A stretch of 64,000 nt of DNA, from the IMG/VR virus record IMGVR_UViG_3300025466_001444, one strand, 5' to 3'. The number at the start of each line of letters is the position of its first letter. Within the stretch, counting starts at the first letter, position 1. Of the stretch, positions 3,008-62,996 are shown one piece after another. The position numbers and the translations under genes were made by a program. A model generated the notes under the pieces. It saw only the letters and a program-made list of their open reading frames with translations. It made no database searches and was not told where the DNA came from. Source of the stretch: a virus. Lineage: Duplodnaviria > Heunggongvirae > Uroviricota > Caudoviricetes.

Positions 3008-3010
3008 ATA

Positions 3011-10480: not shown

Positions 10481-10489
10481 AAAATCTTA

Positions 10490-11543: not shown

Positions 11544-11907
11544 TTTTATTCAAAACAAATAATCTTGAAACGTGTATTGTCAATCCAATATCCAACAACC
11601 CACTTACCCAATTCTACACTATAAGTCTTGATAATCTTGTTCATTTTGTCACTCCATTAATACAACAAAGTTTCTTTCCTGAGATACTCAGGTGTTGATT
11701 CTCTAACATATTCTTGGATATCTTGCAAGATATCTTCTTCATCTTCTGGGATTAATACCGATACAAGGGTATTAAAATCTTCATCATCATAGGAAAAAGT
11801 ATTCTTATCGATCATATTTATATCCTTTCATTAAGACATCCGTAGTATACACTCATAAAAAACCTTGTCAAGTAAAAAATCCCACTTTTTGAGTGGGATT
11901 TCTGTTT

Positions 11908-14608: not shown

Positions 14609-14617
14609 ATTATTTCC

Positions 14618-14866
14618 TTAACTTTCTAGAATTGAATTAAGTTTTTTAATAAACTCATTGATTTTATCCTCACGATCAGGCCAATTGATTGTTGGCTTGT
14701 CTGGATTCTTTTTTAAATTATTTAAGAGTGGCATGATCATGCTATGCATTTCACTACACTTGCTCTTCCATTTCATAACATCTGACGCCTTTGCAGTCAA
14801 GTCTGCTTGAAACTTTTTAGAACTTTCTTCTGGACTATCAGAAAATGTAAAACCAAAATCATCCAT
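14618..14866 (-). CDS. hypothetical protein (82 aa)
   Basis: ORF between uvsX and the polymerase. Confidence 0.45.
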   Translation of the reverse strand: MDDFGFTFSDSPEESSKKFQADLTAKASDVMKWKSKCSEMHSMIMPLLNNLKKNPDKPTINWPDREDKINEFIKKLNSILES

Positions 14867-14871
14867 TTATT

Positions 14872-15981
14872 TTACTCCCAAAATTGATCTAATGTATTTC
14901 GTTTTTCAACTTGCCAACCAATCGCATCTAAAATGGTTTTAATAGGCTCAACGAATGACTTAGAATACTGTAGCTCATAATCAATGTACTTGTCAAGGTC
15001 CAATTGACGAGGAAGATTATGATGACATGCAATAACATTTTCTTTGATTGGATTTGGCATTTTCATATAACAGAACTTGATCTTATCACCATCTTGGATA
15101 AAGGGATAACGATTCCCCAGATTTTCATTCCTTAGAAGATTATTATATACAAGTGCTGCACGAACATGCATTGGTGTCCCTGACTTATATATATCTTGCT
15201 TGTTGGACCACTTAGAAAGATTCTTACAACCACGAGGAAATGCAACTTCTTCAAACGAAAGCTTCTTGAATTCCTGACGAAAATCAGCAATAAATTTAAT
15301 CATATCATCTTCTGTCTTGGACATGATTACGCCCATAGCTTTTTTAATATTATCTCGACAAGCTTGTGGTGTGGATGAACGAACAGCTTCGATGCCCATC
15401 ATTTTCAACTTAGGTTCGCTGTATTGAACACCTTCGTTATTCCATACATTCAAGATATAACGTTTCTTTGCAGTCCAAATTCCCTTACTAGCAATTGATT
15501 CACGCTTCATCTGCATCTTCTGTGCATACGCATTCATCATTACTGCTAGTTCTTGATAACATTTGTCAATGAATGGCTGAACCTTTTGTTCGCAGAAAGC
15601 ATCAACAGCACCAACAATAAATGGCGCATCGTCAGTGTTGAGAAGCTTTACCATCTCAGCCATCTTCACATAGATAGAATCAGTATCAGATGCAATTACA
15701 TAATCAACTTCCTTTGTCTTGCATACCTTATTCATAAACTCATTCATCTTCTTTTCAATCCACTTGATTGAAAGCTGACCAGAAAGAGTGATCGAAGTAG
15801 CAAGATTGTCGTCATACCAACGAAAATATTCGTTAGACAACGCACCATATGCTGAGTTGAGTTGAATTTTCTTTGCAAGTTGAAGATTGTGGGATTGAGA
15901 TATTTTTTTAATTAAATTTTCTCTATGCTCTATCAACTCCTGATCCGTCATCTTTTCTATGTCTAGCTTTTGCAGCATCAC
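14872..15981 (-). CDS. 43: DNA polymerase (family B, gp43-like) C-terminal fragment (palm motif B/C, thumb)
   Basis: KIQLNSAYGALSN (motif B, KxxxNSxYG) and a YVIASDTDS-like motif C. The N-terminus overlaps the HNH ORF. Confidence 0.85.
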   Translation of the reverse strand: MMLQKLDIEKMTDQELIEHRENLIKKISQSHNLQLAKKIQLNSAYGALSNEYFRWYDDNLATSITLSGQLSIKWIEKKMNEFMNKVCKTKEVDYVIASDTDSIYVKMAEMVKLLNTDDAPFIVGAVDAFCEQKVQPFIDKCYQELAVMMNAYAQKMQMKRESIASKGIWTAKKRYILNVWNNEGVQYSEPKLKMMGIEAVRSSTPQACRDNIKKAMGVIMSKTEDDMIKFIADFRQEFKKLSFEEVAFPRGCKNLSKWSNKQDIYKSGTPMHVRAALVYNNLLRNENLGNRYPFIQDGDKIKFCYMKMPNPIKENVIACHHNLPRQLDLDKYIDYELQYSKSFVEPIKTILDAIGWQVEKRNTLDQFWE

Positions 15982-16432
15982 TCAACTTCCTTTTCCATTC
16001 ATCAGTAAATACTCTACCCTTACGTCCAACTTTAGCATTATGTTCTGGACTATGCAACTTTCCTTTCAATGCAGAAGAAATATTATTAATATGATCTTCT
16101 GATAATTTTTTCCCTGTCTGTGCTTTTCTATTATTTTCTACATGAGTAATAGAATGTTTTTTTCCTTTTTTAGCATCACTCATTTTTTTTCTGGTTTCTG
16201 AACTTCTAACTTTTCCAGTATTTGCTTTTCTAACTGCTTCACGTTGAACTTCTTCACTTGGTATTCTTCCACTCAATCCTTTCCAAGCAATTTCATCCTG
16301 CCAACGACCATATTTTTCAAACAATAATTTATGTGCTTCTGCATGTTGTTCAACAGTCAAATATTGAATATTTGAAGGATCATTTGTTCCTCCAACGTGT
16401 TTTGGTATTATATGATGTTTGTGTAATAACAT
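15923..16432 (-). CDS. HNH homing endonuclease with NUMOD-like repeats, inserted inside the polymerase gene
   Basis: HHIIPKHVGGTNDPSNIQYLTVEQHAEAH is an HNH motif. Lys-rich repeats of the form GKK..S..H. Confidence 0.75.
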   Translation of the reverse strand: MLLHKHHIIPKHVGGTNDPSNIQYLTVEQHAEAHKLLFEKYGRWQDEIAWKGLSGRIPSEEVQREAVRKANTGKVRSSETRKKMSDAKKGKKHSITHVENNRKAQTGKKLSEDHINNISSALKGKLHSPEHNAKVGRKGRVFTDEWKRKLSDAAKARHRKDDGSGVDRA

Positions 16433-16462
16433 AAAGGGCTCCCATTGTTAGCTACCTGCATG

Positions 16463-17941
16463 TTATTTATATAACATTTTCCTCTTTTTCATTTCAGATT
16501 CAATTATTTCCAAATCTTTTTTGGCTTCAATCATGCGCTCCTTAAATACGACACGATCATTGTACATCTTCTCCATCAGAGTAGGAAGGAAGCCTTGCTT
16601 ATCCTTACGATAGATAGCACCATTAGCAGCAATAGCATGTTCACAATTATGAGACCATTCACTATTAATCAATTCATCAACAGATGAGAATTTAGGCAAT
16701 ATAGCCACAAAAGTTTCAGGACTTACATTATATTGCATAATAAGATGAGGATATAGAGAATTCAAATCGAATGATACAACCCAATCATGCATTCCAAGAA
16801 TTGGGTCTTTTACATATGCGCCAACAATCTGTTCATCCTTATGCGTCTTCTTATTCTGAGGAATAACAATGCGCTGATTAATAAGATAGTTGTGAATGAT
16901 TACATCCCAGAGACGCACAGAAGTAAACGCATCAGAGAAGTTGACCTTCGCATCATACGCAATAGCAAATACTTGTTCGATCAGTTTCAGCTTGTCATCA
17001 AGGCGACCAACAAGATCAACGTCCTTGATATTGTACTCAATGAAAAGCTGATAATTCTTCTTATACAAATCGAACAGAGATTCATATTCAGAATAATCAA
17101 GTTTGCGTTCGCCAAGTTCAATGTGGGCGATGTGATCCAGACGATAGGATTCCTGATTAGTGAATGTGAACTTCCTGTAGAGTTGTAGATAATCAAGTAC
17201 TGTGATGCCAACAGGAATATACGATTTCTGTTCAACACCATATTTCTCTACAGAACGTTCCTCAATGATGCCCCAAGGTGAAATCTTCTTAGCCATTTCA
17301 TTTCCAAGAAGCCTACGGACACGATTGATGATATACGGAATATCAAAGTACTCCACATTCCAACCAGTCACAACATCAGGCTGAAACCACTTCATACGCC
17401 ATAGGTCAAGGAATTTGATGAGCAAAGATTCTTCATCTTTACACTTGAAGTACTTCACATTTTCATTGGTGTTTACGAACTCCCCACACCCAAGAACAAC
17501 GTAGATGTCATCCTTCTTCATTGTGATGGCAGTTATTTCTTTTTCAGCAGTTTCAATATCGGGAAACCCTTCATCAGCTGCAACCTCAATATCGATATTA
17601 ACGATAGAAATTTGCTTAGGGTCATAATCAATTTCGCCGGGATAATAATCATTGATGAATGGGTAGACGAACTGTGTCATCCCATAGATATCAAAGTTGG
17701 AAACATCGCCATATTGCTTCACATAATCACGAGCATCCTTTGGAGAATCAAAGTCGATACGCTTGACAGGATCGCCCTTTAGGTTCCTGAATTCAATCTC
17801 ATCCACATTGTTTGGATTATTGTTGTGGACAAAGAGGTACGGCTTGCAAGGCAGCTTTTCGAATACACGTTTACCACCATCATAGCCACGAAGCAGAATG
17901 GTATCGAAGTGAAGATGTGCATGGGTGTAAAATTTGCTCAT
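16463..17941 (-). CDS. 43: DNA polymerase (family B, gp43-like) N-terminal fragment (N-terminal, exonuclease and motif A region)
   Basis: Exo motifs (FDIE-like IDIEV) and an SFDLNSLYPH-like motif A (VVSFDLNSLYPHLI). The ORF ends in a stop before motif B. Confidence 0.85.
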   Translation of the reverse strand: MSKFYTHAHLHFDTILLRGYDGGKRVFEKLPCKPYLFVHNNNPNNVDEIEFRNLKGDPVKRIDFDSPKDARDYVKQYGDVSNFDIYGMTQFVYPFINDYYPGEIDYDPKQISIVNIDIEVAADEGFPDIETAEKEITAITMKKDDIYVVLGCGEFVNTNENVKYFKCKDEESLLIKFLDLWRMKWFQPDVVTGWNVEYFDIPYIINRVRRLLGNEMAKKISPWGIIEERSVEKYGVEQKSYIPVGITVLDYLQLYRKFTFTNQESYRLDHIAHIELGERKLDYSEYESLFDLYKKNYQLFIEYNIKDVDLVGRLDDKLKLIEQVFAIAYDAKVNFSDAFTSVRLWDVIIHNYLINQRIVIPQNKKTHKDEQIVGAYVKDPILGMHDWVVSFDLNSLYPHLIMQYNVSPETFVAILPKFSSVDELINSEWSHNCEHAIAANGAIYRKDKQGFLPTLMEKMYNDRVVFKERMIEAKKDLEIIESEMKKRKMLYK

Positions 17942-17977
17942 ACAAATACCTTATACCAAAGTGAGCCAAGATGCAAG

Positions 17978-18012
17978 CAAAAAATAGGGGGCAATGACCC
18001 CCTATTAAGTTT
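17978..18012. terminator. intrinsic terminator hairpin (tagggggcaatgaccccctat) flanked by A/T runs
   Basis: G/C stem with an A-run upstream and a T-rich run downstream, so it can act bidirectionally. Confidence 0.55.
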
Positions 18013-18220
18013 ATTTCCTGCAATTTTGTATTGCTAAGTTCAAGATATCACCACGGCAAATGCCGATATCAGAAAGTTCTCTATCAGACAATTTTGATAG
18101 TTCCTTGATGATATTGTAATACCTTGTAGTGGCTGAAAATTCTTTCTGCCAGTAGTCCATCCATTCATGTATCATTTTTTTATTCTGCGATAAATTGTTT
18201 CGTTGACTTTTTTGTGGCAA
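18011..18220 (-). CDS. hypothetical protein (69 aa)
   Basis: ORF. Confidence 0.4.
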   Translation of the reverse strand: MPQKSQRNNLSQNKKMIHEWMDYWQKEFSATTRYYNIIKELSKLSDRELSDIGICRGDILNLAIQNCRK

Positions 18221-18704
18221 CTTCTGTTGTCACATCGTCGGTGATATCAATCTTTTTAGGTTTCTTACTTTCAGGAATAATATGTTCAAGCCAAATCTTG
18301 AGAATACCATTTACCATGGAAGCATTGTTTACAACGACATTATCATTAAGAGCAAAAGTACGAGTAAAAGCACGATCTGCAATTCCCTTATGAAGATATT
18401 GTACATCAACACCATCAGAAGTAAGGGTGTCCAAAGTTGTTTGGCCCTTGACGACAAGCTTGTTTTCTTCAAGAGTCAATTCAATATCTTGCTTACCAAA
18501 TCCAGCAACAGCAAGTTCGACAACATATACATTTTCGTCTGTCTTCTTTAGGTTAAATGGGGGATACCCATTGCCAGCTGTCTTCTGAATGTGTTCGTAA
18601 GTTTCATTCATCTTCTGAGCAATCTTGTCTGCTCCAACAAAAAACTTGTCAAACTTGGCAAGATCAGAAAATGTATGATCGAATCTATAAGGTGTATTAG
18701 TCAT
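18180..18704 (-). CDS. small heat shock protein (Hsp20/alpha-crystallin family)
   Basis: GYPPFNL...YVVELAVAGFGKQDIELT...GILKIWLE is the alpha-crystallin domain pattern. Confidence 0.75.
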   Translation of the reverse strand: MTNTPYRFDHTFSDLAKFDKFFVGADKIAQKMNETYEHIQKTAGNGYPPFNLKKTDENVYVVELAVAGFGKQDIELTLEENKLVVKGQTTLDTLTSDGVDVQYLHKGIADRAFTRTFALNDNVVVNNASMVNGILKIWLEHIIPESKKPKKIDITDDVTTEVATKKSTKQFIAE

Positions 18705-18815
18705 CTCATCGTTCTCCTATGTTAGCGAGATTCATAAATATGCCGTCCAACTATGCAACGACATAAATATATTTAGGTTGGATTTATCAATTTTCAAGAG
18801 TGAGGAATAAAAAAA

Positions 18816-19277
18816 ATGGCTGACGAATCAAAAGCACCAAGTGAAGATTTTGTTACTTCGAAATGGAGACCCTTTATGGGTTGGACATATATGGCTATAT
18901 GTTCCTTTGATTTTATTTTTGGACCAATTATGAATGTAGTATTTTCCGTCATAACAAAAACACAATTAGTCCCATGGAAGTCACTCACACTTGATAATGG
19001 TGGTTTATTTCATCTTTCAATGGGTGCAGTTCTAGGTGTAGCTGCATATGGAAGAACACAAGAAAAAATTTCAAAGATTGATAATGGAATTCCATTACCG
19101 GGAACAGGAATGGCTTCATCTCCAATAGTATCTGAAACTACGATAACTGATACTTCAGTCAATGTAACTCCAATTCCATCTGCTCCCACACCAGTTTCCA
19201 CAGTAGTTGCTACTCCAGCACCTCAACCAGTTTCTACCCCAGTTGCTGTTTCATCAACACGTAAAAGATTTATTTAA
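18816..19277 (+). CDS. membrane protein with Pro/Thr/Val-rich C-terminal tail
   Basis: Two transmembrane segments, then PIPSAPTPVSTVVATPAPQPVSTPVAV. RBS GAGGAA upstream. A terminator follows. Confidence 0.55.
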   Translation: MADESKAPSEDFVTSKWRPFMGWTYMAICSFDFIFGPIMNVVFSVITKTQLVPWKSLTLDNGGLFHLSMGAVLGVAAYGRTQEKISKIDNGIPLPGTGMASSPIVSETTITDTSVNVTPIPSAPTPVSTVVATPAPQPVSTPVAVSSTRKRFI

Positions 19278-19283
19278 AATAAA

Positions 19284-19312
19284 TTGGGGCGGTTTATGCC
19301 GCCCCTTTTATA
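19284..19312. terminator. intrinsic terminator ggggcggtttatgccgcccc + T-run
   Basis: Perfect 7-bp G/C stem followed by ttttat. Confidence 0.65.
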
Positions 19313-19560
19313 TTGAAGTGTGAAAATACATTATCTTTATCAAAAGACTGAACGTCACGTACCCAATTCAGTGCATCTTTCTCAGTTGCAAAATGCAACC
19401 TATCTCTAATGGTTAGACCGTTTAAAGTTCCTTTGTTGAGTAACTTATCGAATTCAACAACATATCCGAAAGTCTTTTCTTTTAGGTCAGCCATTTTGCA
19501 GTCTCCATGTTTACGTAGTGTATTTATCAAAAAAGATGGTAGGGGATGTAGGACTCTCAC
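19294..19560 (-). CDS. hypothetical protein (88 aa)
   Basis: ORF. Confidence 0.4.
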   Translation of the reverse strand: MRVLHPLPSFLINTLRKHGDCKMADLKEKTFGYVVEFDKLLNKGTLNGLTIRDRLHFATEKDALNWVRDVQSFDKDNVFSHFNIKGAA

Positions 19561-19796
19561 CTACTTTAGCGCCGTTATGAGCGGCGAGCGTCGTTTACTT
19601 TCGCCTATCCCCCAAACTCTTTCTTTTTCCTCCACAACCTATTTAGAACGGAACAATAAAGTCTTCTCCAACTGAAATCAATCTCTCTAAATTATTTATT
19701 TCAGTCTTCAATCTTTCTACGTCTTCATCATTCCATTCTGCTTCACTCAACTCTTTTCGTTTGGCTTTGAGTACATCGTATGTACGGGGAAAAGGT

Positions 19797-20027
19797 TCAT
19801 TCATCTTCTGGCTCCGTATACTGAATCAAAGTTGCATTGCGTATTCTGTATCCACGATCATGCCAATCTTGAATCTTTCTTGAGATATCTGGGTCGTCAT
19901 ATGTGCTTTGACAATGACGAACCCATGCTTCCATAGCAGTAAGACCAAAGGTTTGATAGCTCATTCCCCACCATGCAGCTTTGCTTACTGGAGGTTTGAT
20001 CACAAACCCATAGGTCTCTTTTTTCAT
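19797..20027 (-). CDS. hypothetical protein (76 aa)
   Basis: ORF. Confidence 0.45.
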   Translation of the reverse strand: MKKETYGFVIKPPVSKAAWWGMSYQTFGLTAMEAWVRHCQSTYDDPDISRKIQDWHDRGYRIRNATLIQYTEPEDE

Positions 20028-20266
20028 TATACCATACCAATTGACTGCATATAAAGATCAAGAAGTGTCTCTTCTTCCTGACGCTGTTCCTTTGTCTTAC
20101 GACGAATTGAAATGATCTTACGGACAATCTTTGTTTCATAGCCAGCAGACTTCACTTCAGTGTAAATCTCTTTAATATCTTCAGAGATGGCTCGCTTGTC
20201 TTCATCTAGTCGCTCGATACGATCAATGTATGCAAGCAACTGATCCTTATTCCCATTGTCACTCAT
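20027..20266 (-). CDS. gapR: GapR/DUF2312-family nucleoid-associated protein homolog (start taken at internal Met; track ORF extends to 20356)
   Basis: LLAYIDRIERLDEDKRAISEDIKEIYTEVKSAGYETKIVRKIISIRRKTKEQRQEEETLLDLYMQSIG aligns along its length with Caulobacter GapR. Confidence 0.75.
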   Translation of the reverse strand: MSDNGNKDQLLAYIDRIERLDEDKRAISEDIKEIYTEVKSAGYETKIVRKIISIRRKTKEQRQEEETLLDLYMQSIGMV

Positions 20267-20324
20267 AATCAATATCCTTTTATTAAGAGAAAGTAGTGGG
20301 GGAGATTTCTCTCCCCCGTTTTTG

Positions 20325-21263
20325 TTAGGCGTCAGCAAACTCAACTGCCTTTTCAAGAGCTAGAACCTTGCGATTCCGATTAGGACCATACCATGCAGAC
20401 TGCAAACGAGTCTCAGGATTATGACCAAGAACATGGTCAGTGGTATAGGTTACGGCATTAAAAGCTTGCCACCATGAACCCTTACCAAATTCTGCTCCCG
20501 GTTGAGTATCCAAAACTTCCATGACCTGTGTAGCAGGACGAGAAAGAATCTTCTTATTCTCCTTAGACATAACAGGAAAAATGGTCTGAAGATACTCAGT
20601 AAGGTTTTCCTCATTGTACTGGCGAGAAGAAAGAAACTCAGCGGTTTCCTTATAGGTATCCATCTTGTTATGAGCGATGCCCAAAGTACGCCTTACCATA
20701 TCGGGATCAAAAGCACGACGATGGTTGAGCTTAACCATAAGGTCACTAGAAGTACCAAGAGCAAGAGTAAGAGTATTATTACAGACGACACGAATCGGAG
20801 TAAAGCGGATATCAATAGACTTGCCATACTCATGAGGATTACTAAACAGAAGATAAGAGTCAACACGGTCGCCTCCAAGAATCTCAAAGCTATCCTTCAC
20901 CTTCGCAAGAGCCCAAACGTTCTTGCCTTCACGAAGAGAACCAGCGGTATGCATTTCCATATCACCAGCCATCACGAAGTCATTGAAGAACTCAAAAGCC
21001 TCATGATTCTGAACAGGCTTCCAGTCAGAAGAAACCATAGTCAAAATCTTGTCGTCAGAAGAACGAACCAGAGCTTGAGTATCTGTTACAATCTTCTTGC
21101 CCTTACGGGTGATAAAAGTTGGAACTTTTTCGACTTCCCAGTCCAAACCAGCTTCCTTGAGCATCTGGTCTGGAGTCAGATCATGATGAACGCTTTTGCC
21201 AAGACCATGCCAAGGAGTTTCACCAGCGTATGCCATTGTTTCGACGATGTGTGCCATAATCAA
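20325..21263 (-). CDS. DUF932 (phage/plasmid-related TIGR03299-like) protein
   Basis: N-terminus MAHIVETMAYAGETPWHGLG is characteristic of DUF932. Confidence 0.65.
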   Translation of the reverse strand: MIMAHIVETMAYAGETPWHGLGKSVHHDLTPDQMLKEAGLDWEVEKVPTFITRKGKKIVTDTQALVRSSDDKILTMVSSDWKPVQNHEAFEFFNDFVMAGDMEMHTAGSLREGKNVWALAKVKDSFEILGGDRVDSYLLFSNPHEYGKSIDIRFTPIRVVCNNTLTLALGTSSDLMVKLNHRRAFDPDMVRRTLGIAHNKMDTYKETAEFLSSRQYNEENLTEYLQTIFPVMSKENKKILSRPATQVMEVLDTQPGAEFGKGSWWQAFNAVTYTTDHVLGHNPETRLQSAWYGPNRNRKVLALEKAVEFADA

Positions 21264-21355
21264 GTTCCTTTCAGCTCATGAGTCCATCGACTCAACATAA
21301 TCATATTACTCTAGGAGGATTGTGGAGTCAAGCGTTTTTTTAAATATTTTTACTC

Positions 21356-21937
21356 TCAACTGCCATCATCATCTTCTTTTTCTTCCTGATACGCCTCAAT
21401 ATGCATTTCATAATCATCTTCTAGGTTAAATTGCTCAATAAGGTGATCAGGAATATCATCACGCCAATCATCATCTTCAAAATCAACATTGTAACAATTA
21501 TCTCCATCTTCGCTGGTATATTCACCGACAAAAGATAAACCTTCTTCACGATACTGAAGCTCGACAATAAAACCAAGTTCTGTGAGTGCTTCCATGGCTG
21601 TCACAGGCGGCGACCATGCGGATTGGAACCATCCTGTAGCGGATTTGGTCTCAGGATCATATTCCAGTTCGCCATCCGCAATTTCCCACTTTGTCCCCCA
21701 ATTTTCGATGCGCCATGAGTACCAACTTGCATGACCAAACTTTTCGATGTTCGCAGCTTCCTGAGCTTCACGGCGAGAATTAAACCCATCGCCAATAGAA
21801 ACTTCAACAAGAAGTTCTGGAGGACAAGGAACAAACTCATTCAAGAAATTTCCATCCTTAAATGCCTTATCAAGACGCTCCATCATTGCAGAGTCTTCAT
21901 GTGAAATAGAAATTGAATTATCGCACCAGTTAGGCAT
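21356..21937 (-). CDS. hypothetical acidic protein with N-terminal MPNWC motif (DUF1281-like)
   Basis: MPNWCDNSISI start and an acidic C-terminus. Confidence 0.45.
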   Translation of the reverse strand: MPNWCDNSISISHEDSAMMERLDKAFKDGNFLNEFVPCPPELLVEVSIGDGFNSRREAQEAANIEKFGHASWYSWRIENWGTKWEIADGELEYDPETKSATGWFQSAWSPPVTAMEALTELGFIVELQYREEGLSFVGEYTSEDGDNCYNVDFEDDDWRDDIPDHLIEQFNLEDDYEMHIEAYQEEKEDDDGS

Positions 21938-21948
21938 AGTTTCTCTCC

Positions 21949-22182
21949 TCAGTTGGTATATTTGAAGTAACAGTCAACAATATCCTTGATCTGTTGATCT
22001 GCATCAGTGTAGTATTCTTCGTCCATAATTGCAAGAAGAATTTCTTCATAATCATCTGTCGAAAGATGATTCTTCAAGACCTTTAGATACTTTTCCCCTG
22101 TATCTGTACGTTTCACTTCTTCTTCAAGTGGATCGACAGAAAATTCTACAATCTTTGGAAATGTAATAACATTGTTCATCAT
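21949..22182 (-). CDS. hypothetical protein (77 aa)
   Basis: ORF. Confidence 0.4.
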   Translation of the reverse strand: MMNNVITFPKIVEFSVDPLEEEVKRTDTGEKYLKVLKNHLSTDDYEEILLAIMDEEYYTDADQQIKDIVDCYFKYTN

Positions 22183-22649
22183 TCAGCTCCTGATTCACGA
22201 TAAACATATTCGATTGTTGGTATGTACGGAAACTCGATGTAAACTCGACTATCTCTGCTAGTGTAATGGGATTTATGTTGTACGCCATCTCCGTCAGTAT
22301 ACCAATCCCAAAATACTTTACCTTCACCATCATATGCTCGACCATCAGCATCTTTGAACACATGACCGCAGCGTTTATTCTGATACTTCATATCACCATT
22401 ATAATCAAGTTCATTCCATTCCCAATCTTCACCAGTCAACGGAACGATTGGCTTGTACATCGCAAGCTTGCTGAACATATCAATTGTGTATGGAGCGGTT
22501 GTACCAGAATGTCCTTCATTATCGAATACCTTCAGTAGATCAAGGACGTGATTGCAAATCATTTCCTGCATTTCATCATTGAACTTACCGTTCTCGTCAA
22601 CCCATCCAGCTGCACGAAACTCTGTCATTGCGTGTGTAGCATAACTCAT
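22179..22649 (-). CDS. hypothetical protein (156 aa)
   Basis: ORF overlapping its neighbours by ATGA. Confidence 0.45.
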   Translation of the reverse strand: MSYATHAMTEFRAAGWVDENGKFNDEMQEMICNHVLDLLKVFDNEGHSGTTAPYTIDMFSKLAMYKPIVPLTGEDWEWNELDYNGDMKYQNKRCGHVFKDADGRAYDGEGKVFWDWYTDGDGVQHKSHYTSRDSRVYIEFPYIPTIEYVYRESGAE

Positions 22650-22855
22650 TGCTCAAACTCCAGATTAAAGTGTTTAGCCAATTTGGCGTAACCGTTTCGG
22701 CTTGAACCAACAACATCCATACATTCTTGTATGATCAACTCAGCAAAATCTTGAAGCTCAACATCAATTGAATCAAAAGCATCAGGTGAGAAAACCTTAT
22801 CATTTTCAACAAGAAAGTAAGCTTCTTTGGCAAGCTCTTTGATTCTTTCGTTCAT
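22646..22855 (-). CDS. MNER-family small protein, paralog 1
   Basis: MNERIKELAKEA...FAELIIQECMDV shared with three other ORFs. Conserved upstream DNA. Confidence 0.55.
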   Translation of the reverse strand: MNERIKELAKEAYFLVENDKVFSPDAFDSIDVELQDFAELIIQECMDVVGSSRNGYAKLAKHFNLEFEQ

Positions 22856-22970
22856 ACTTCAACTCCTGATTCACGATAAACATATTCTCGATTTGGGGTG
22901 TAGGGAAAATCGATAAAGAACACAAAGGCAATGGTAAGTATAAGGTTCACAGTCAGTCTGATGAAGTATC

Positions 22971-23198
22971 TCATAGTTCAATCCCAAATCGTTCCTTGAT
23001 TATACGGATAGACTCGTCATCATTAGCACAACGCATTTTACCATTTGAAGTATCATGTGTTTGTTCACAAACATCGATACATTCTCTGATGATCAATGCA
23101 GCAAACTCTACAGTTTGTCTAGTCGGCATATCACAACCACAACTACACATTTCCAATCCAGCCTGTTTAGTAAGCTCTTTGAACCGCTCGTTCATCAC
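22971..23198 (-). CDS. MNER-family small protein, paralog 2
   Basis: MNERFKELTKQAGL...FAALIIRECIDV. Confidence 0.55.
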   Translation of the reverse strand: MMNERFKELTKQAGLEMCSCGCDMPTRQTVEFAALIIRECIDVCEQTHDTSNGKMRCANDDESIRIIKERFGIEL

Positions 23199-23417
23199 TC
23201 AACTCCAACGATTGATCTTAAACTTGCCAAGATGCTTATTGTATCTGGCACAGGCGACAAAATTTCCAAACTTAAAAACGAAGCCTACCTGATTGCTGCC
23301 CTTGGGATAGAAATTAAATCCTGTTTGGACACCTTCACCCTCTTCTCTAATGTGTATCATTACTCTGTTTCCTCTAAAATAGCATAGACGATAGGAATAA
23401 TTTTGAGATACTTCCAT
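23199..23417 (-). CDS. hypothetical protein (72 aa)
   Basis: Fills the gap between the paralogs. Confidence 0.35.
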   Translation of the reverse strand: MEVSQNYSYRLCYFRGNRVMIHIREEGEGVQTGFNFYPKGSNQVGFVFKFGNFVACARYNKHLGKFKINRWS

Positions 23418-23496
23418 CGAAGTGGTTCTTCAAAAAGAATGACAGGAGGTGCCCATTCATCATCATCTTCTTTATAACAAATCCAAGCAAGCTTCA

Positions 23497-23739
23497 TCAT
23501 TCAACTCCAAAGTGATATTTGATAGCGTCATCAGCAAAATCAGCTGCTTCGCCATCATTCCCATACTCGTAGTAACCAACAAGACCGATGCATTCCTCAA
23601 GGATCAACTTAGCAAACTTTTCCAAGTCTTCCTTGATGAATGGCTTATCAGGAGTCATGATATAAGCCAAACCAGCTTCTTTAGCGAAGTTTTCCAAACG
23701 CTCGTTCATCACACCACCTTGTATCCATGTTTGTTGCAT
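23497..23739 (-). CDS. MNER-family small protein, paralog 3
   Basis: MNERLENFAKEAGL...FAKLILEECIGLV. Confidence 0.55.
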   Translation of the reverse strand: MQQTWIQGGVMNERLENFAKEAGLAYIMTPDKPFIKEDLEKFAKLILEECIGLVGYYEYGNDGEAADFADDAIKYHFGVE

Positions 23740-23930
23740 TTAGGACAAACAACTGTTTGCTGTGGAGGATACGAAGTAAGCATCACATGCGGATTATCCA
23801 GGTACATTTCAGTATCGCAATCGTCACACTTTACGCCAGCAGAAAATCGCTGAGGTGGCGTACCATAACCATTGTAGGCAAATACCAGACTATGCTCTTT
23901 GTTGTGTTCACTCAGTTTCTTCATCACCAA
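23709..23930 (-). CDS. zinc-ribbon protein (CxxC...CxxC)
   Basis: CDDCDTEMY...CPKCNKHGY. Confidence 0.45.
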   Translation of the reverse strand: MVMKKLSEHNKEHSLVFAYNGYGTPPQRFSAGVKCDDCDTEMYLDNPHVMLTSYPPQQTVVCPKCNKHGYKVV

Positions 23931-23997
23931 CTCCTCATCATTTAAGTATTATAACCTACTTCTGATAAGAAGTCAAGCTATCACATACTTCATCATA

Positions 23998-24072
23998 ACA
24001 AAAACCTTTCAATTAACGACAAACTGTTTCCCACAGCTTTGTCAGCAAGCTCTTTGATTCGCTCGTTCATCA
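23998..24072 (-). pseudogene. truncated MNER-family paralog (about 25 codons)
   Basis: Reverse-complement reads MNERIKELADKAVGNSLSLIERFLL* and then stops. Confidence 0.45.
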
Positions 24073-54372: not shown

Positions 54373-56505
54373 TTAAAACTTGCCAACAATTTCAGTAAAC
54401 TCGACACCAGTGCGTACTGCAACGAAGTTGAGCTGAATGAAATTGATTGAACGTGCGGGCTTGATATAAATGTCACCTCTAAATTCGTTTGCATCAATAA
54501 CTTCAGGAGTGTTATTTGTAGTATCACAAATTACTCTGAAATCATAGATTCCACGACGACCCTGAATATCACGAAGATATGGTTCTACAAGATTGCGGAA
54601 TGAAGCTCTTGTAAAATCATCGTTGAATTCAAATAGAGTTGACTTAGCAGCAATCGCAATTGCCTTCTCAAGCACAATGAATAGTCTGCGTACATTGATA
54701 CGATCAAATGCAGATGGTCTTGCAAGCAAGGTCTTATCACCATATAGAACTGTTCCCTGACCGGGGAAATTGACTACAGGGTTTACACCATTACGATAAA
54801 GAACATCACGATTTGCCTTATCAGGATTGTATGCAAGCTTTACAACATTCTTGATAATGCCTCTGTTGAATCCAGCTGGAGACCACCATGCATCACGAAC
54901 ATTATCTGTACGAACACAAAGACCAGCAATATCACCATTAAGAGGAACCCAACGATATGTGTCATTATACTTATCATATTGATACTTATAACCAGAATCA
55001 AGAACTGCATATGAAGTTGAAGTCAATGCATTTCTAAAAGCTGTAACATTATCTAGCTCATGACCGGGAACATTTACTACTGCAGAAAGATCAGGTGAAA
55101 TAAATGCTACACAATCTTTCCTATATTCGCAGATATTATCGATGATGTAATTTGCGAGTACTTCACCAATATTTCCTCTTGCCTTACCACCAAGAATCAA
55201 AGAAACATCTACATCTTCTGATGACTTATACTTGTCATATGCAGTCATTAACTTTGATACAGCAATAGTAGATTCTGGATCACCATCTGCGCCACTAGCA
55301 AAATTCAAAGAAAGATTGTTAGTTAAAGATGGTGCAAGAAGAGTATCATCAGCATTGCGTGGAGTTGTTGATAGTATGTCCTTTGCAGACCATACATACT
55401 TTGAACTCATATTAAGAACGTCTCTATAGAAAATAGAACCGCCTTGTTCGCCCTTTGCATCAGTTGCAATTGAAAGATTTGGCCAAACTTCTAGAATTTC
55501 ACCGGGAATACCAGTAAACTTACCATTTTGATCTACAACAACGATATGGACTTGATCCATAACCATGTTGTTTGCATTTCTTGATGATACATATCCAGAT
55601 GTTCCTGGAGCCATATCAACAGCATTGTGAAATTCCCAATACTTATTGGCTAAAGTTGTGCCATAATAATTTCCAGTGATGCTATTTGCAGTACCAGAAA
55701 TTGTAATATCCATCTTCTGTCTATAAGTTTCATTAAACATTATCTGGAAGCTAGAATTAATTCCTGAACCAACACTAACACTAGTTGTTCCACCAACAGC
55801 ACTAACAGTTAAGTATTGTGTTCCAGTAGAAGTATTACCTACAAGAAACACATCACCGATGTTAATGTTATTCTTCATATCAACTGCCATAGAAGGAGCA
55901 AGATTTACGTCAGTGACACTTTGGAAAACTATATTAGCTTCCATTGATCCTACTGGAATATTGAATGAAAAATATGTATTAGAAATTTGAATTGCAACAT
56001 TTGACCCATTATAAGCCATAAGTTGACTTGCATAAGCAGTTTCTGTTGGGCAGATAGAAATTCTTATAGAATTGCCAACATCACCAGCATACTTAGCAAC
56101 AAAATAAACATTGCTATAAGCATTTGAACCACCAGCTTCATTTAATGTAGTATATTGTGCTTCAAAATCATGAAGATTTTTAATAACAACAGTATTTCCA
56201 CCTACACCTGTTGATCCAACATTAGCGACGGCATTATATGCGGAGGCTGAAGCTGCTCTTGATACATATAGCTGATTGCCATATGCCAAGAAATTTGCAG
56301 CTGTGAAGAAGGTTTCGTAATTATTTGCGTTTGGTTTTCCAAAAACTGATACTAACTCGTCCTCAGATGACACAAGTACTCTGTCTTCTATTGGACCCCA
56401 TTTGAATACTCCAGCAGTTGCTCCAAAAGTTGAAGAAACGGCAGGAACAATGGTTGTTAGATCAATTTCAGAAACGTTAACGCCGGGACTAACTTGAAAT
56501 GGCAT
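54373..56505 (-). CDS. 18: tail sheath protein gp18
   Basis: N-terminal SPGV...GVFKWGPIE matches T4 gp18 (SPGIE...GKFQWGP). 710 aa. Confidence 0.85.
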   Translation of the reverse strand: MPFQVSPGVNVSEIDLTTIVPAVSSTFGATAGVFKWGPIEDRVLVSSEDELVSVFGKPNANNYETFFTAANFLAYGNQLYVSRAASASAYNAVANVGSTGVGGNTVVIKNLHDFEAQYTTLNEAGGSNAYSNVYFVAKYAGDVGNSIRISICPTETAYASQLMAYNGSNVAIQISNTYFSFNIPVGSMEANIVFQSVTDVNLAPSMAVDMKNNINIGDVFLVGNTSTGTQYLTVSAVGGTTSVSVGSGINSSFQIMFNETYRQKMDITISGTANSITGNYYGTTLANKYWEFHNAVDMAPGTSGYVSSRNANNMVMDQVHIVVVDQNGKFTGIPGEILEVWPNLSIATDAKGEQGGSIFYRDVLNMSSKYVWSAKDILSTTPRNADDTLLAPSLTNNLSLNFASGADGDPESTIAVSKLMTAYDKYKSSEDVDVSLILGGKARGNIGEVLANYIIDNICEYRKDCVAFISPDLSAVVNVPGHELDNVTAFRNALTSTSYAVLDSGYKYQYDKYNDTYRWVPLNGDIAGLCVRTDNVRDAWWSPAGFNRGIIKNVVKLAYNPDKANRDVLYRNGVNPVVNFPGQGTVLYGDKTLLARPSAFDRINVRRLFIVLEKAIAIAAKSTLFEFNDDFTRASFRNLVEPYLRDIQGRRGIYDFRVICDTTNNTPEVIDANEFRGDIYIKPARSINFIQLNFVAVRTGVEFTEIVGKF

Positions 56506-56567
56506 TGTTTTCTCCTTTTTATAATAAAAATCACATATTATTTCGTATGATTATTTATAAAAACTCA

Positions 56568-57374
56568 ATTTAGTAAAAATTTTTCAAACTCGTTTTCACT
56601 CATTACTTTATCGTTAAATTCTTCTTCCCTGCCATCATGTATAATACCAAAAGGTGTGAAATCTTCTTCAACTTCTTCTTCAATTCGTCTACGGATATCT
56701 GTATTTGAAACATCTTTAAAATAATTTTGACTTGCCATCCAAGCAAAAAGAACCATGCACATTACCAAATCGTCATGATGTCCTTCTTCTGCATTGTAAG
56801 TATTTCTATCAACAGCATATGTGGACAGTTCATTTATAATATCATAATCATTTAAAATTATTTTATCAGATTCGATAAGAGTTTTTAAGTTAGCGCATCC
56901 TATTCTTTTAGTAACTTGAGTTGTTTTTATACCTAATCTATTTTGATTACCTGATATACCTATTGCTGTGCCTTTTTTACCACTCATTTTTGTCATAACA
57001 ATATTTTCATATTCTAAATCTTGATGTAGAATATTTACTACTTGTGATCCTATATTTATTTCAACCAATATAGCTGCTTCGTTATAATATTTTCCTATAT
57101 TAGAAAGTAATGTTGGTAACATTAATTGTGATATATTTGAATCTTTAAATGTAGCAACGACTTCATATGGAACAGTAGAACAATCGATTACTACGAGTGC
57201 AGATGAATCCATCCCTAAACCTTCGCTAACATCTACTGTTATGGAATAAATATGATCTTTGATTGGATGTTTATATATTTTTACTTCATGAGGATTGTCT
57301 ATTGGTCTCATGTATGCTAATCTAGAAAGAACTGAAGGATGGATAAGAGTGTTAGTAGAACCTAAGAATTCGCA
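56568..57374 (-). CDS. 17: terminase large subunit gp17, C-extein (nuclease domain) portion of fragment 56565..57698
   Basis: Begins with Cys (+1) right after ...SHN, then a RuvC/RNaseH-like nuclease region (VDVSEGLGMDSSALVV...D...HHDD). Confidence 0.8.
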
Positions 57375-57698
57375 ATTATGTGATAAAATATCATTTGCAT
57401 AAAACTGTTCATTTTCTACTCCAACAATATCAAAATATTCAAATTCTCCCTCTTTGTAATCTAGAAAAAATATCTTAGATTTTTCGTTTTTACATATGAT
57501 AATATCGTCGTTCTTAAGATCAATAGATTTCTTCCAACCATCTACAGTCATGATTCGGTGGGTAAGCGAACATTTTAATTGACTGCCGTTTTCTAAATGA
57601 ATTTCAATTTGACCATTTTTTTTAATTTTTTGTACACCTTTAAAAGGTAAATACCCTTCAGATGTTTCTATTAATGTATTATTATTTTTAAAGAACAT
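57375..57698 (-). mobile_element. split intein C-fragment (108 aa, blocks F/G: DIVGVENEQFYANDILSHN) fused upstream of TerL C-extein
   Basis: Own Met start. Ends with HN followed by Cys+1. Confidence 0.8.
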
Positions 57699-58257
57699 TT
57701 CGTTTTCCTGTAATTATATTATATAATTGTGATTCAGTTACGTTATATTCTTTATGAAATTCTTTAGAAAAAACTCTTTCATAAGTAATTTTTCTTCCAT
57801 TTTTTGATATATCACCTACACCATTTAAAGGAATTTTATTATTATATTTTTTCAAAATTAAACAACATTCATGATCAGTAATTTTAACTTTTCCAAATCT
57901 TTTACCTTTTCTGTTGTTTCTAACTTCTTCAGAAAAAGAATATTTTTTCCCTTTATTCCACGGAACTGTTCCTTTTGAAACTCCACCAATATTTGGTCTT
58001 TTCTTTCCTTTTTGTAAATTTGAAGAATAATCTGGACCAAATCCAATTCTTTTAGCAATTAATGCAGCTGCAAACCAATCTTCTTGCTGTAAATGAATAT
58101 CGAAATGTTCTCTTATTGTAACTAATTGTAAATTTTCTATGTTATTATTTTTATGATTACCATCTATATGATGTATTTCATAAGAAAACCCATTTTCATC
58201 AGTTGGTATTTTTCCGTGTGTATTTTCCCAAATTTTTCTATAATGCATATAATTCAA
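57688..58257 (-). CDS. free-standing HNH endonuclease inserted between the two TerL/intein halves
   Basis: EIHHIDGNHKNNNIENLQLVTIREH is an HNH motif. 189 aa. Confidence 0.8.
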   Translation of the reverse strand: MNYMHYRKIWENTHGKIPTDENGFSYEIHHIDGNHKNNNIENLQLVTIREHFDIHLQQEDWFAAALIAKRIGFGPDYSSNLQKGKKRPNIGGVSKGTVPWNKGKKYSFSEEVRNNRKGKRFGKVKITDHECCLILKKYNNKIPLNGVGDISKNGRKITYERVFSKEFHKEYNVTESQLYNIITGKRNVL

Positions 58258-58276
58258 TCCTATAAAATTGCATTCA

Positions 58277-58360
58277 TATTATATTTATAATTTCTTTGAT
58301 TGCAACTTTTTTGGAAATGTTATCTATTAAAATATTAATTTCTGTATCACCGTCTAAACA
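58277..58360 (-). mobile_element. split intein N-fragment (28 aa: CLDGDTEINILIDNISKKVAIKEIINII) at C-terminus of TerL N fragment
   Basis: Cys1 followed by the LDGDTEI Hint block A. Immediately follows extein ...RQEFE and ends in a stop. Confidence 0.8.
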
Positions 58361-59158
58361 TTCAAACTCTTGACGAAATTGATCAACAGAAGTATTTCGA
58401 ATAGTTTCTACTTTCCATGCTTCGTCTCTGCCGGGAACATCTGACCAATGAACATCAACACGGGCATAAGAATTTTCACTATTAACAGAGTCCATCCAAA
58501 TTTTATAAAATAAATTCATACCATTTGGTGTGGAAGTTATTAATAATTTAGAAGTGTTACCAGAAGAAATTGTTGGGAATACTGAAGCAAAAAATGTGTC
58601 TTGAATATTTCTGGGAACGAATGCAAACTCATCAAGATAAATTAGATTATAAGATTGACCACGAATAGCAGATGATGAAGTGGCAGCTGCAAGTATTTTA
58701 GAACCATTTTCCAATTCGATATTTCCTCTATTCCATTGAATAATGCCTTGCTGCATCCATTTGGGCAACCATTCATATGCAAGTTGAATTCGAGAAAGAA
58801 TTTCTTTTGATTGAATTTGTTTATTAGCCAAAACTGCAATATTATAATTTTCATTGAAAAGAATTTTATGAAGCATATACCCAACAACACCTGTTGTTTT
58901 CCCCACCTGACGAGGCATTTTACATATTGTAAAACGGTTGTCATCAAATACTTTAAACATTCTTTTTTGATATTGATAAGGACTAAAAGAAACGAGTCCT
59001 TTATCAATACTCACGATCTTAACATAATTCTCACAAAAATAATTTACATCATTGGCGCACTTTATATATTCTAAAATTTGTTCTTTTGAAAATTCTAGTT
59101 GGACACCTTTACGCTTTAAGTTTATATTACCAAGATATACTTCATTTGTACTATTCAT
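58361..59158 (-). CDS. 17: terminase large subunit gp17, N-extein (ATPase domain) portion of ORF 58274..59158
   Basis: Walker A KMPRQVGKTT and Walker B LIYLDE. Start overlaps the TerS stop as in T4 16/17. Confidence 0.85.
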
Positions 59159-59549
59159 TATAATCAGACCTAATCATCTTCAATAACTCAGAAGAAGAAC
59201 CAACAAATAAATTGTTGTTGACTGTTTTATTACCTTCATTGCTACTATCAGCTTTATTAATTTCTTTGTTCTTTTTTGCTAATTCCATAAGGTCTTTATT
59301 TGTTTCAGCCAAAGTTTTAATTAAATTGGTGACTACTTCATATGCTCTAGGAGATTCTGATTGTCTAGCAATATCTACAATATCTTCTAATGCAGATTGA
59401 CCTTTTTCTATGATATCATACATGTTCTGACGAGCATATTCATAGTCATTCTTTTCTTTTGACGGCAAGAATACAGGATTTGGTGGAGAAGGAATGGGTG
59501 GTATTCCTAATGAATTTGAAATTACATCTTTATTAACCATATGTTTCAC
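59151..59549 (-). CDS. 16: terminase small subunit gp16-like (by position)
   Basis: 132 aa ORF overlapping the TerL start. Coiled-coil-like. Confidence 0.55.
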   Translation of the reverse strand: MKHMVNKDVISNSLGIPPIPSPPNPVFLPSKEKNDYEYARQNMYDIIEKGQSALEDIVDIARQSESPRAYEVVTNLIKTLAETNKDLMELAKKNKEINKADSSNEGNKTVNNNLFVGSSSELLKMIRSDYNE

Positions 59550-61073: not shown

Positions 61074-61103
61074 TTATAGCTTTCTTTTGTTTTTATATAC
61101 TAT

Positions 61104-62996
61104 TTATAGCTCTTTACTTTTTCTTTTATTTGCTACTCTAAACTGTGCAAGACGTTGTTCTGCATCATTACGAACGAACATTGAAGATTTATCTGTTGAT
61201 GCTTTTAAAGCATGTTCCTCAGTTGCATTGGGATGATTTACTGCTTTTCTTCTTACAACGTCATCTGGATCATTTAATGCTTTAGAAATATGTTCTGCAT
61301 TTGCATTTGGATTAGATATTGCTGTTCTTCTTACAGCCTCATCTGGATCATTTAATGCTTTAGAAATATGTGCAGATGTTGCATTTGGATGAGCTACCGC
61401 TGATCTTTTTATACCATCTTCTTCATTTGGATCATTTAATACTTTAGAAATATGTTCTGCAGTTGCTTTAGGATTTTGAATAGCATGTGATCTGACAAAT
61501 GATTTATCATCATTTAATGCTTTTGTAATATGCTCTGTTGTTGCTTCTGGTCTTCTTACAGCAATTCCTCTTATTCTTGTGTCTACATCATTTAATGCTT
61601 TTGTTATATGTTCTGATGATAATTTAACATGAGGATTTTGAATAGCAGCTTGTCTGATATCAGAATGATTGTGAGCATCCAAAGCTTTATTAATATGATC
61701 TGGTGTTGCATTAGGATTAGATACTGCAAATGCTTTTTCAGGACCACTAGTACCATTTAAAACTTTAGTAATTTCTTTTGCTGGTAATTTTGGATGTTGT
61801 AATGCAGCAATTCTTACATTTCTATCTTCACCCCATTTATTATTTAATACATGGGTAAGATGTTCTGCTGTTGCATTTTTATTTTTTAATGCAGCTTTTC
61901 TTACATAATCATCACCATCATTATGCAATACATGTGTAATATGTTCTGCTGTTGCATTAGGATGTTGAATCGCAGCTGCTCTAATTCCAATATGATCAAT
62001 TCCTAAAGCTTTTGTGATATGCTCTGCCGTTGCATTTGGATGTTGAATAGCAGCAAGTTGTACTTGAGCTTGTTCATCATTTAATCCTTTTGTAATATGT
62101 TCATGTGACACATTACTATTATCAAAAGCTGCGGCTCTGGTATTAGGGTCTTTACTTTTTAATGAAGCATTAGGACTGGCAATCACATCTTTTTGATCAT
62201 CATTATATAATTTTTTATTTTTTCTGTATATTTTATCATCTTTAACAGGAAAATTTGTTTCAGCCCATTTTTTTACTGTATGTCCAAATGCATGATCAGA
62301 AGTTCCATATTGTGATTCTTCTGGTCTGAGAATGGTATCTTTTTTATCTTCCGATTGAAATGGTTTCAATGCTATTCTTGCAAGAGGTTGTTTAGCTTCT
62401 TTGTCATGTTCGTGTACAAGATAAGCAACGTGTGTTCCTTGTTGAACATCATGCTTTAGATAATGACTATTACTACCAGCACCAATACCTTTTTTAGCTC
62501 CTGTTGTACTCATACTCATACATGAACGCCAACCTCTGTCAGTAGACATTCCAGCAACATCATGTGGGTGACGAGAAATAACTACGCCTAGTTTACCAGA
62601 ATTGGAAGCAGCCCTTTTAGGATCGTTGTTAAATGTGCTAACTAATTCTTTTGAAGCACCTGTTGCAGCTAATGCTTTACCAATACGAATTTCTCTGTTA
62701 TACTTAGGCTCAATTGCTTTATTACCTTTATAATCAGTTATCTTATAGCCATGCTTTTCCAGATGCGCTTTAACATCTGGATGAGGTTCTACTGGCTTAT
62801 TGTCATCTGGATGTTCTAGAGGGATATATGTTCTATCTTGTCCTTCTGGAATTGCATCTTTAGAAATTTTCTTAGCCTTTGTGTTTTCACCCCATGAATC
62901 AACAACTTTTTTTTGAGCATCGTTCAATTCTTCGTTTAGAAGGGTATTATAACCTGTAATAGCATTTTCTTTGATAAACTGTTTAAACATTAACAT
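61104..62996 (-). CDS. 630-aa protein with N-terminal globular domain and about 14 tandem about-31-aa HEAT-like/PBS-lyase-like (or LRV) repeats
   Basis: Repeated ...NPNATAEHITKALND.D..VRR.A... units, which are also about-93-bp DNA tandem repeats. Confidence 0.6.
   Translation of the reverse strand: MLMFKQFIKENAITGYNTLLNEELNDAQKKVVDSWGENTKAKKISKDAIPEGQDRTYIPLEHPDDNKPVEPHPDVKAHLEKHGYKITDYKGNKAIEPKYNREIRIGKALAATGASKELVSTFNNDPKRAASNSGKLGVVISRHPHDVAGMSTDRGWRSCMSMSTTGAKKGIGAGSNSHYLKHDVQQGTHVAYLVHEHDKEAKQPLARIALKPFQSEDKKDTILRPEESQYGTSDHAFGHTVKKWAETNFPVKDDKIYRKNKKLYNDDQKDVIASPNASLKSKDPNTRAAAFDNSNVSHEHITKGLNDEQAQVQLAAIQHPNATAEHITKALGIDHIGIRAAAIQHPNATAEHITHVLHNDGDDYVRKAALKNKNATAEHLTHVLNNKWGEDRNVRIAALQHPKLPAKEITKVLNGTSGPEKAFAVSNPNATPDHINKALDAHNHSDIRQAAIQNPHVKLSSEHITKALNDVDTRIRGIAVRRPEATTEHITKALNDDKSFVRSHAIQNPKATAEHISKVLNDPNEEDGIKRSAVAHPNATSAHISKALNDPDEAVRRTAISNPNANAEHISKALNDPDDVVRRKAVNHPNATEEHALKASTDKSSMFVRNDAEQRLAQFRVANKRKSKEL

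Follow-up and report, generated by a model that had tools for sequence, protein, structure and literature searches.

A fractured large terminase gene with a predicted atypically split intein plus a free-standing HNH endonuclease gene in a Caudoviricetes virus

The window analyzed here, a 64,000-nt stretch of the IMG/VR record IMGVR_UViG_3300025466_001444 (Caudoviricetes), carries its large terminase gene (terL) in two pieces, with an endonuclease gene between them. The question raised by this locus is how two pieces could yield one large terminase subunit (TerL), and what an endonuclease is doing in their midst. We consider it very likely that terL is a fractured gene whose products are joined in trans by a split class-1 mini-intein and that the HNH endonuclease belongs to a homing cassette; this endonuclease is probably expressed late.

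The two terminase halves and their intein segments

The three open reading frames (ORFs) of the locus lie on the minus strand, each in a different frame. The first, TerL-N (58274..59158, 294 amino acids (aa)), begins with a 266-aa N-extein (58361..59158) that matches Pfam Terminase_6N (2e-22), bears Walker A (RQVGKTT) and Walker B (LIYLDEF) motifs, and aligns with the ATPase domain of T4 gp17 in 3EZK and 2O0H. After the final extein residues, ...RQEFE, it continues for exactly 28 aa, CLDGDTEINILIDNISKKVAIKEIINII (58277..58360), and stops (stop codon at 58274..58276). This tail, with Cys1 and Hint block A, is the candidate N-terminal intein fragment (IntN). The last ORF, TerL-C (56565..57698, 377 aa), has its own Met and Shine-Dalgarno sequence (AGGA-N7-ATG). 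Its first 108 residues (57375..57698), with blocks B, F and G, are the candidate C-terminal intein fragment (IntC); they end ...FDIVGVENEQFYANDILSHN and are followed directly by CEFLGS, the start of a 269-aa C-extein (56565..57374, including the stop codon) that begins with Cys+1 and has the RNaseH-like nuclease domain (Terminase_6C, 1.8e-12; T4 and RB49 gp17 nuclease domains, 1e-34 to 2e-33). Two separately translated polypeptides are encoded, the N-extein with the 28-aa IntN and the 108-aa IntC with the C-extein. The coordinates and residue counts that the original prediction assigned to both are correct, as to the Walker A/B ATPase, 28-aa tail and stop of the one and the separate Met, 108 aa, Cys+1 and nuclease domain of the other. 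A gap of 578 nt lies between TerL-N and TerL-C and contains the whole of the conserved HNH ORF, the stop of which overlaps the TerL-C start by 11 nt.

Where the intein begins and ends can be read from relatives that lack it. A scan of IMG/VR with TerL-C furnished 21 intein-less loci (L002-L023 minus L004), in which TerL is one continuous ORF of 67-94% aa identity. In these relatives, residue 266 joins straight to Cys and EFLGS (...QEFE-CEFLGS...), and their tblastn homology to TerL-C begins exactly at residue 109. Because they read through as one ORF, both intein boundaries are fixed to the residue. The insertion site, between E266 and Cys+1, is where the ATPase and nuclease domains of TerL meet. 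Joined in silico, the exteins of the window make 266 + 269 = 535 aa, which is the length of the intein-less TerL in L002, L003, L005 and L006 (translated in full or nearly so) and agrees with the roughly 535 aa foreseen for the spliced protein. When this joined TerL is aligned with T4 gp17 (3EZK; E 7e-105), the match spans residues 3 to 496 and runs through the junction without a gap. Removal of the insertion restores the host protein exactly, as for a class-1 intein.

With IntC alone as the query, the best match among solved structures is 6DSL CatC (6DSL_B; 1e-7), followed by gp41-1 (8e-5) and DnaB inteins; the Pfam Intein_splicing model matches below its cut-off only. The TerL-N tail matches CatN (6DSL_A) at E 0.08, in an alignment that opens at the common extein residues EFE. 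A profile of fused IntN and IntC, built from 27 sequences from related loci, matches CatC (9.5e-26) and gp41-1 (5e-14). Further matches are to VidaL (profile positions 7-142), DnaB (3-102) and a polymerase intein, and the alignments to these three begin at positions 2-7. Since VidaL and DnaB are matched from N-terminal positions, IntN appears to map onto the N-terminal strands of contiguous inteins.

The catalytic positions of IntC are H47 in block B (S-L-T-H47), D90 in block F, H107-N108 in block G, and Cys+1. In the family alignment of 27 IntC sequences, G15, F19, G21, H47, D90, H107, N108 and C+1 are invariant. IntN reads CLDGDT.I; every row of the 27-sequence fused alignment has C or S at position 1, and T6 is all but invariant there. 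Every family-invariant catalytic position is present in the window intein. The case for a Hint fold is made here wholly by sequence-profile matches to solved inteins. The evidence supports assignment to the class-1 split inteins of the atypical TerL family (AceL-TerL / GOS-TerL / Cat), with the split falling after block A and before block B. The proposal of an atypical split intein with a short N-intein of the AceL-TerL/GOS-TerL type thus stands, given the same EFE...HN|CE site, family and split position. The same can be said of the reading of the 28-aa tail as a Hint N-block: it keeps Cys1 and T6, and its match to CatN includes the EFE extein.

We propose that the short IntN, which is probably disordered, docks on a partly folded IntC and so completes the Hint fold; experiments on the related Cat intein (6DSL) have shown such docking. 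Protein trans-splicing would then be performed by Cys1, the His of block B, the Asp of block F, the terminal His-Asn and Cys+1, and would yield a 535-aa TerL laid out like the uninterrupted TerL of close relatives. A competing idea is that the TerL fragments form a non-covalent, two-piece enzyme, in which the intein halves only dimerize. Split genes that work without splicing do exist in T4-like phages (PMC2677866), and the HNH-split NrdA of phage Aeh1 is a two-piece enzyme of this kind according to work cited in that paper; further, a spliced product at this locus is deduced from sequence. But all of the splicing residues named above are kept in the window, and their invariance across both family alignments (27 IntC and 27 fused sequences) would be needless for mere association. 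AceL-TerL, GOS-TerL and Cat, moreover, splice in vitro (PMC11766414). We therefore judge a non-splicing enzyme to be improbable, and retain trans-splicing as our interpretation.

The HNH endonuclease and probable movement of the cassette

The gene between the halves (57688..58248, minus strand) encodes a free-standing HNH endonuclease of 186 aa. The original prediction had the ORF and its position right, but started it at 58257; because that TTG codon abuts the Shine-Dalgarno sequence, the ATG at 58248 is the likelier start, and it is also the one picked by independent gene callers. The protein scores 48.8 bits against Pfam HNH_3 (5.5e-13; cut-off 24.8 bits), and its best PHROG match is PHROG 12324, “intron-like DNA endonuclease”. 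It comprises an N-terminal HNH_3 nuclease, a NUMOD3-like linker and an apparent C-terminal helix-turn-helix-like module. Full-length homologs make up 164 clusters (42-95% identity), for which the only label anywhere is “hypothetical protein”, and H26, H27, N34, N39, H48 and H52 are invariant in 42 homologs. Three distant homologs that were looked up (45-49% identity) all lie between Terminase_6N and Terminase_6C ORFs, which suggests that the family is site-specific. The HNH_3 proteins share their C-terminal 100-150 residues with GIY-YIG proteins (40% identity, 2e-27); therefore, the nuclease domain seems to have been swapped on a common, putative DNA-binding module. GIY-YIG proteins with this module occupy the equivalent gap in L104, L106, L107, L109, L120, L138 and L151. 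A family-profile search of the window found no second intein or HNH of these families.

Evidence for movement comes from L001, a 202-kb contig in which the IMG/VR scan found the whole three-ORF arrangement of the window. Over the IntN-HNH-IntC block, the two share 93-94.5% DNA identity (96-99% across the 5' part of the HNH gene), versus 83-84% in the exteins, with a sharp fall at the C junction. The exteins of L001 are in turn 95-97% identical to those of the intein-less allele L005. The simplest reading would be that the cassette as a whole moved horizontally, and recently, from one terL allele to another about 16% apart; the alternative is precise loss of the cassette in L005. From -7 to +77 of the junction, at sites where L001 and L005 differ, the window agrees with L001 at 10 and with L005 at 3, which suggests a short co-conversion-like tract. 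A stretch of high identity some 130 nt upstream of the N junction was also considered as such a tract, and was rejected because a three-way comparison showed it to be conserved in all alleles.

We infer that the locus is active in homing as well as in trans-splicing. The large terminase gene of this T4-like phage would be a fractured gene, in which a free-standing HNH cassette cut a class-1 mini-intein after block A. The HNH protein would cut intein-less terL alleles in co-infecting phages, repair would copy the entire IntN-HNH-IntC cassette into the cut allele, and the intein would render the insertion into an essential gene harmless. Consistent with a homing endonuclease, the HNH gene and the intein show presence-absence polymorphism among close relatives. 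HNH packaging accessories are known to adjoin terminases in cos phages (Kala et al. 2014, as cited in PMC10055350), and the protein studied here is likewise encoded beside terminase genes, which raises the question of whether it is an accessory like the HK97 gp74 type instead of a homing endonuclease. Such a role is highly improbable: the HNH is found in some close relatives with an otherwise intact TerL and missing from others, its position in homologous loci can be filled by a GIY-YIG or Vsr-like protein or by nothing, its putative DNA-binding module is common to the GIY-YIG versions, it travels with the intein cassette, and its best PHROG match is to an intron-like endonuclease.

Several observations weigh against a splicing intein with a homing endonuclease. 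IntC is 31% identical to CatC, and IntN on its own matches weakly (E 0.08 to CatN and 0.02 to the family profile). A single-sequence AlphaFold (AF2) model of fused IntN and IntC was unusable, with a predicted local distance difference test score (pLDDT) of 39. The Cat consensus (6DSL), which was derived from AceL-TerL and GOS-TerL, served as the proxy for both. A model of the HNH protein gave weak structural matches to I-HmuI, and the HNH could be decaying, as it has accumulated more amino-acid change than IntC.

The original prediction allowed that a frameshift or sequencing error might have broken one continuous intein-containing ORF. This possibility was checked and is not borne out: JGI, ENA and Logan assemblies of several samples contain the identical TerL-C protein on a total of 14 contigs, the layout recurs in L001, and no single frameshift can merge the halves because 578 nt with an entire conserved ORF separates them. 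Between the window and L001, codon differences number 21 synonymous and 3 non-synonymous in IntC, 21 and 10 in HNH, 87 and 25 in the N-extein, and 94 and 30 in the C-extein; to judge from such counts, the split-intein locus is under selection. Chimeric metagenomic assemblies are possible, and one locus, L092, strangely combines intein-less with intein-bearing sequence, but it is extremely improbable that the window is an artifact, or a dead terminase in a defective or chimeric contig, given the exact TerL-C on 14 contigs from different samples and assemblers, the same three ORFs in L001 (90-95% identical, the changes in IntC being mostly synonymous), the roughly 60 further loci with the same architecture, and the essential nature of the terminase. 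In L092 (1906-3570), TerL-N reads through an intein-less junction (QEFD-CEFLGS...) to a stop 41 codons later, and an ORF of IntC and TerL-C lies about 400 nt downstream. Intein-less and intein-bearing alleles may have recombined at this locus, or may have been joined in a chimeric assembly.

A putative promoter, a conserved hairpin and a possible homing-site mimic at the split point

The last codons of IntN contain a T4-type late-promoter consensus, TATAAATA (58282..58289, minus strand), which lies 33 nt 5' of the HNH ATG. The motif occurs 18 times in the window, where 7.7 copies are expected, and the coding strand carries 17 of these. In 10 of 11 HNH-type loci and 4 of 7 GIY-YIG-type loci it stands just 5' of the endonuclease gene, with a one-mismatch copy in a fifth GIY-YIG-type locus, whereas most Vsr-like and endonuclease-less loci lack it. 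We take the copy at 58282..58289 to be a putative late promoter. Other copies in the window lie at 56552-56559 and 61101-61108, and several are just upstream of structural genes.

The motif sits in the loop of a conserved stem-loop predicted at 58258..58315 (minus strand). The 5' arm (58315..58297) falls among the codons of IntN; the 3' arm (58276..58258) spans the TerL-N stop codon (TGA) and the HNH Shine-Dalgarno sequence. In 10 related loci, 90.6% of cells at its 16 pairs are paired, versus 30-47% when the partners are slid. Compensatory changes occur at 7 pairs, and covariation is 0.306 versus 0.158 in shuffled alignments, none of 500 of which reach the observed value. Because the full hairpin does not fold significantly in the window sequence by itself (z -0.5), the support for it is this covariation. 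The short 5' untranslated region downstream of TATAAATA folds no better than shuffles.

This arrangement is reminiscent of the genes for T4 I-TevI and Aeh1 mobE, in which a late promoter lies within a hairpin that sequesters the ribosome-binding site of the endonuclease in read-through transcripts. In the I-TevI case, a homing-site-like operator also overlaps the late promoter. The expression control of I-TevI and Aeh1 mobE is reportedly treated by Gott et al. 1988, Edgell et al. 2004, and Gibb and Edgell 2007. By analogy, the promoter and hairpin of the window would allow translation of HNH from late transcripts only. HNH expression would probably be so restricted because the putative late promoter is in the loop of a hairpin that would otherwise hide the ribosome-binding site. 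The window differs from I-TevI and mobE in that these predicted elements lie in the 3' end of an intein-coding ORF.

Directly 5' of the HNH gene, at 58252..58278 (minus strand), stands a homing-site-like sequence, TATGAATGCAATTTTATAGGATTGAAT, that resembles the uninterrupted TerL junction TTTGAA|TGCGAATTCTTAGGTTCTACT. A weight matrix built from 40 real uninterrupted TerL junctions ranks this site 2nd of 23,929 positions. The equivalent site ranks 1st to 4th of 8,000-24,000 positions in 18 of 21 loci of the HNH, GIY-YIG or catalytic-domain-less types, and 34th to 857th in Vsr-like or endonuclease-less loci. In L167 and L169 the mimic recurs together with the promoter and hairpin, and L158 has an out-of-frame junction relic, ECEFIGTLNTSIN. 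The ungapped match at a single locus is only marginally better than shuffles; the argument for a mimic is built on matrix rank and on positional consistency across loci. Three contiguous inteins of the family were examined at the corresponding point for a homing-site-like sequence, which would support a pre-existing cryptic target, and none was found. Mimics at the TerL-N stop were noted in L104, L107, L149, L158, L167 and L169, which include HNH, GIY-YIG and NUMOD-only loci; Vsr-like and empty loci lack them.

The mimic may serve the endonuclease as an operator in the style of I-TevI, for repression of its own late promoter, or it may be a scar left by the invasion from which the short-IntN class arose. 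If either is true, the last residues of IntN were shaped by nucleic-acid constraints and not by the Hint fold. We advance, tentatively and with rather more doubt than conviction, the idea that the atypical split point was dictated by an endonuclease cassette that brought promoter, hairpin and homing-site mimic with it as a module. This module, if functional, would tie intein-borne endonucleases to the regulatory logic of the T4 intron endonucleases.

Related split terminases and the genomic setting

Inteins like that of the window have been described since 2009 (AceL-TerL / GOS-TerL / Cat; fractured genes), and atypically split natural inteins are an established and sought-after class (PMC10189870). 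The published fragment sizes are 25/104 aa in AceL-TerL (Cys1), 37/115 in GOS-TerL (Ser1) and 30/104 in Cat (PMC11766414); the 28/108 aa of the window are near to all three. The window shares with these inteins the T4-type TerL host, the EFE|C...HN|CE site and the split after block A, and has Cys1/Cys+1 as does AceL-TerL, but its identity to CatC is only about 31%. It falls in a Cys1 branch, accompanied by HNH or GIY-YIG, whereas the GOS-TerL-like Ser1 branch has Vsr-like nucleases or none.

Fractured genes were defined by Dassa et al. 2009 (PMC2677866). In agreement with that definition and with what was originally proposed for this locus, both halves are in their original order and orientation, and a free-standing gene for an endonuclease lies between them. 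The Lake Gatun gp17 terminase locus was the sole one in that study to be broken at an unusual point, with a 122-aa IntC that has all motifs except N1. Only GIY-YIG and Vsr-like endonucleases were seen there, and fracturing by HNH was merely predicted (PMC2677866). The HNH_3 endonuclease of the window is thus unlike those of the founding set, although the nuclease type is not a defining requirement. A full-text search, which covered open-access text, found no report of a free-standing HNH between the halves of a terminase split intein.

Among cultured phages, the same TerL split occurs in Aeromonas phage PX29, Yersinia phage MHG19 and Vibrio phages. PX29 gp17A/gp17B (GU396103), MHG19 and Vibrio phage 1.244.A, all T4-like phages or relatives of these, are split at the same site into a short IntN and a long IntC, with only 25-35% identity between their IntC and that of the window. 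The IntN of PX29 is 33 aa long, and its annotations read “putative N-intein” and “GIY-YIG endonuclease and C-intein”. In these three phages the endonuclease is GIY-YIG, in contrast to the free-standing HNH of the window; PX29 has it as an in-frame fusion to IntC, and Vibrio phage 1.244.A as one to IntN. Campylobacter phages probably share the split; their IntC matches are only of the shorter kind.

How common is this architecture? A word-indexed protein search with IntC alone returned no matches, but an exhaustive HMMER search found 609 cluster representatives at E<=1e-3. Among the best 150 of these, 60 are proteins of 300-460 aa with IntC first and then a C-x-F-x-G-S TerL, while 27 hold an IntC-like region internally; some TerLs of the internal type have two or three further inteins at Walker A, Walker B or other sites. 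When IMG/VR was scanned for the block G/+1 motif, at least 545 stretches were confirmed; 80 loci were kept, about 60 of them with a TerL-N ORF that has a short IntN at its end. Lengths in 41 non-redundant loci are 27-46 aa for IntN (median 31) and 94-129 aa for IntC (median 109). The split TerL intein architecture is common in viral metagenomes, and the earlier description of the short N-intein type as rare holds for characterized examples only, PX29 having already been annotated.

The gap between the halves is variously filled. In the Cys1 branch it holds an HNH_3 ORF (about 190 aa), a GIY-YIG ORF (about 190-235 aa), a NUMOD3-only remnant (about 170 aa) or a small classical HNH (109 aa). ORFs of the DUF559/Vsr-like type (315-390 aa) go with Ser1 in 8 of 8 cases, and loci with nothing in the gap (6-160 nt) are mostly Ser1. 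The DUF559/Vsr-like Ser1 loci, which are GOS-TerL-like, are L121, L125, L127, L129, L140, L144, L156 and L160. L154, with an IntN of 37 aa, an IntC of 115 aa and Ser1/Cys+1, has the values published for GOS-TerL (PMC11766414).

Some TerLs carry two to four inteins, at Walker A, Walker B, C-A-F-I/V and CEFLGS sites; representatives are P0004, P0009, P0018, P0072, P0080, P0094, P0101 and L171 (528-2504). Some of these begin with IntC, and are thus also split there. L171 has a LAGLIDADG-containing intein in TerL-N besides its HNH-split intein.

The survey of loci is of more use than the intein itself, and the candidate regulatory module adds some interest. Split inteins at the TerL site number in the hundreds in viral metagenomes, the one gap has taken in no fewer than four types of nuclease, and the cassette appears to be still moving between phage lineages. 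The set of alleles is thus a natural series for studying both the invasion of inteins by endonucleases and the origin of split inteins. The window adds a further natural short-IntN pair (28/108 aa, Cys1/Cys+1, about 31% identity to Cat); pairs of this type are used to label proteins with synthetic peptides, which makes this one a candidate orthogonal tool.

The terminase locus stands in a T4-like gene order (16-17-18). On the minus strand, the small terminase gene, TerL-N, HNH, TerL-C and a tail sheath gene follow one another head to tail. The small terminase subunit is gp16-like (59151..59549, minus strand; Pfam DNA_Packaging, 5.6e-8), and its gene overlaps the TerL-N start; the tail sheath gene (54373..56505, minus strand) comes after TerL-C. 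Elsewhere, too, the window has the look of a phage genome with its genes on one strand. Its tRNA genes, eight in number (Trp, Ser, Gly, Thr, Asn, Lys, Pro and Met) and all on the coding strand, lie at 579-19613 (minus strand); seven of them are within 579-10480, and tRNA-Met is at 19537-19613. A 630-aa ORF at 61104-62996 (minus strand) has about a dozen tandem repeats like HPNATAEHITKALND, which make up its C-terminal two thirds.

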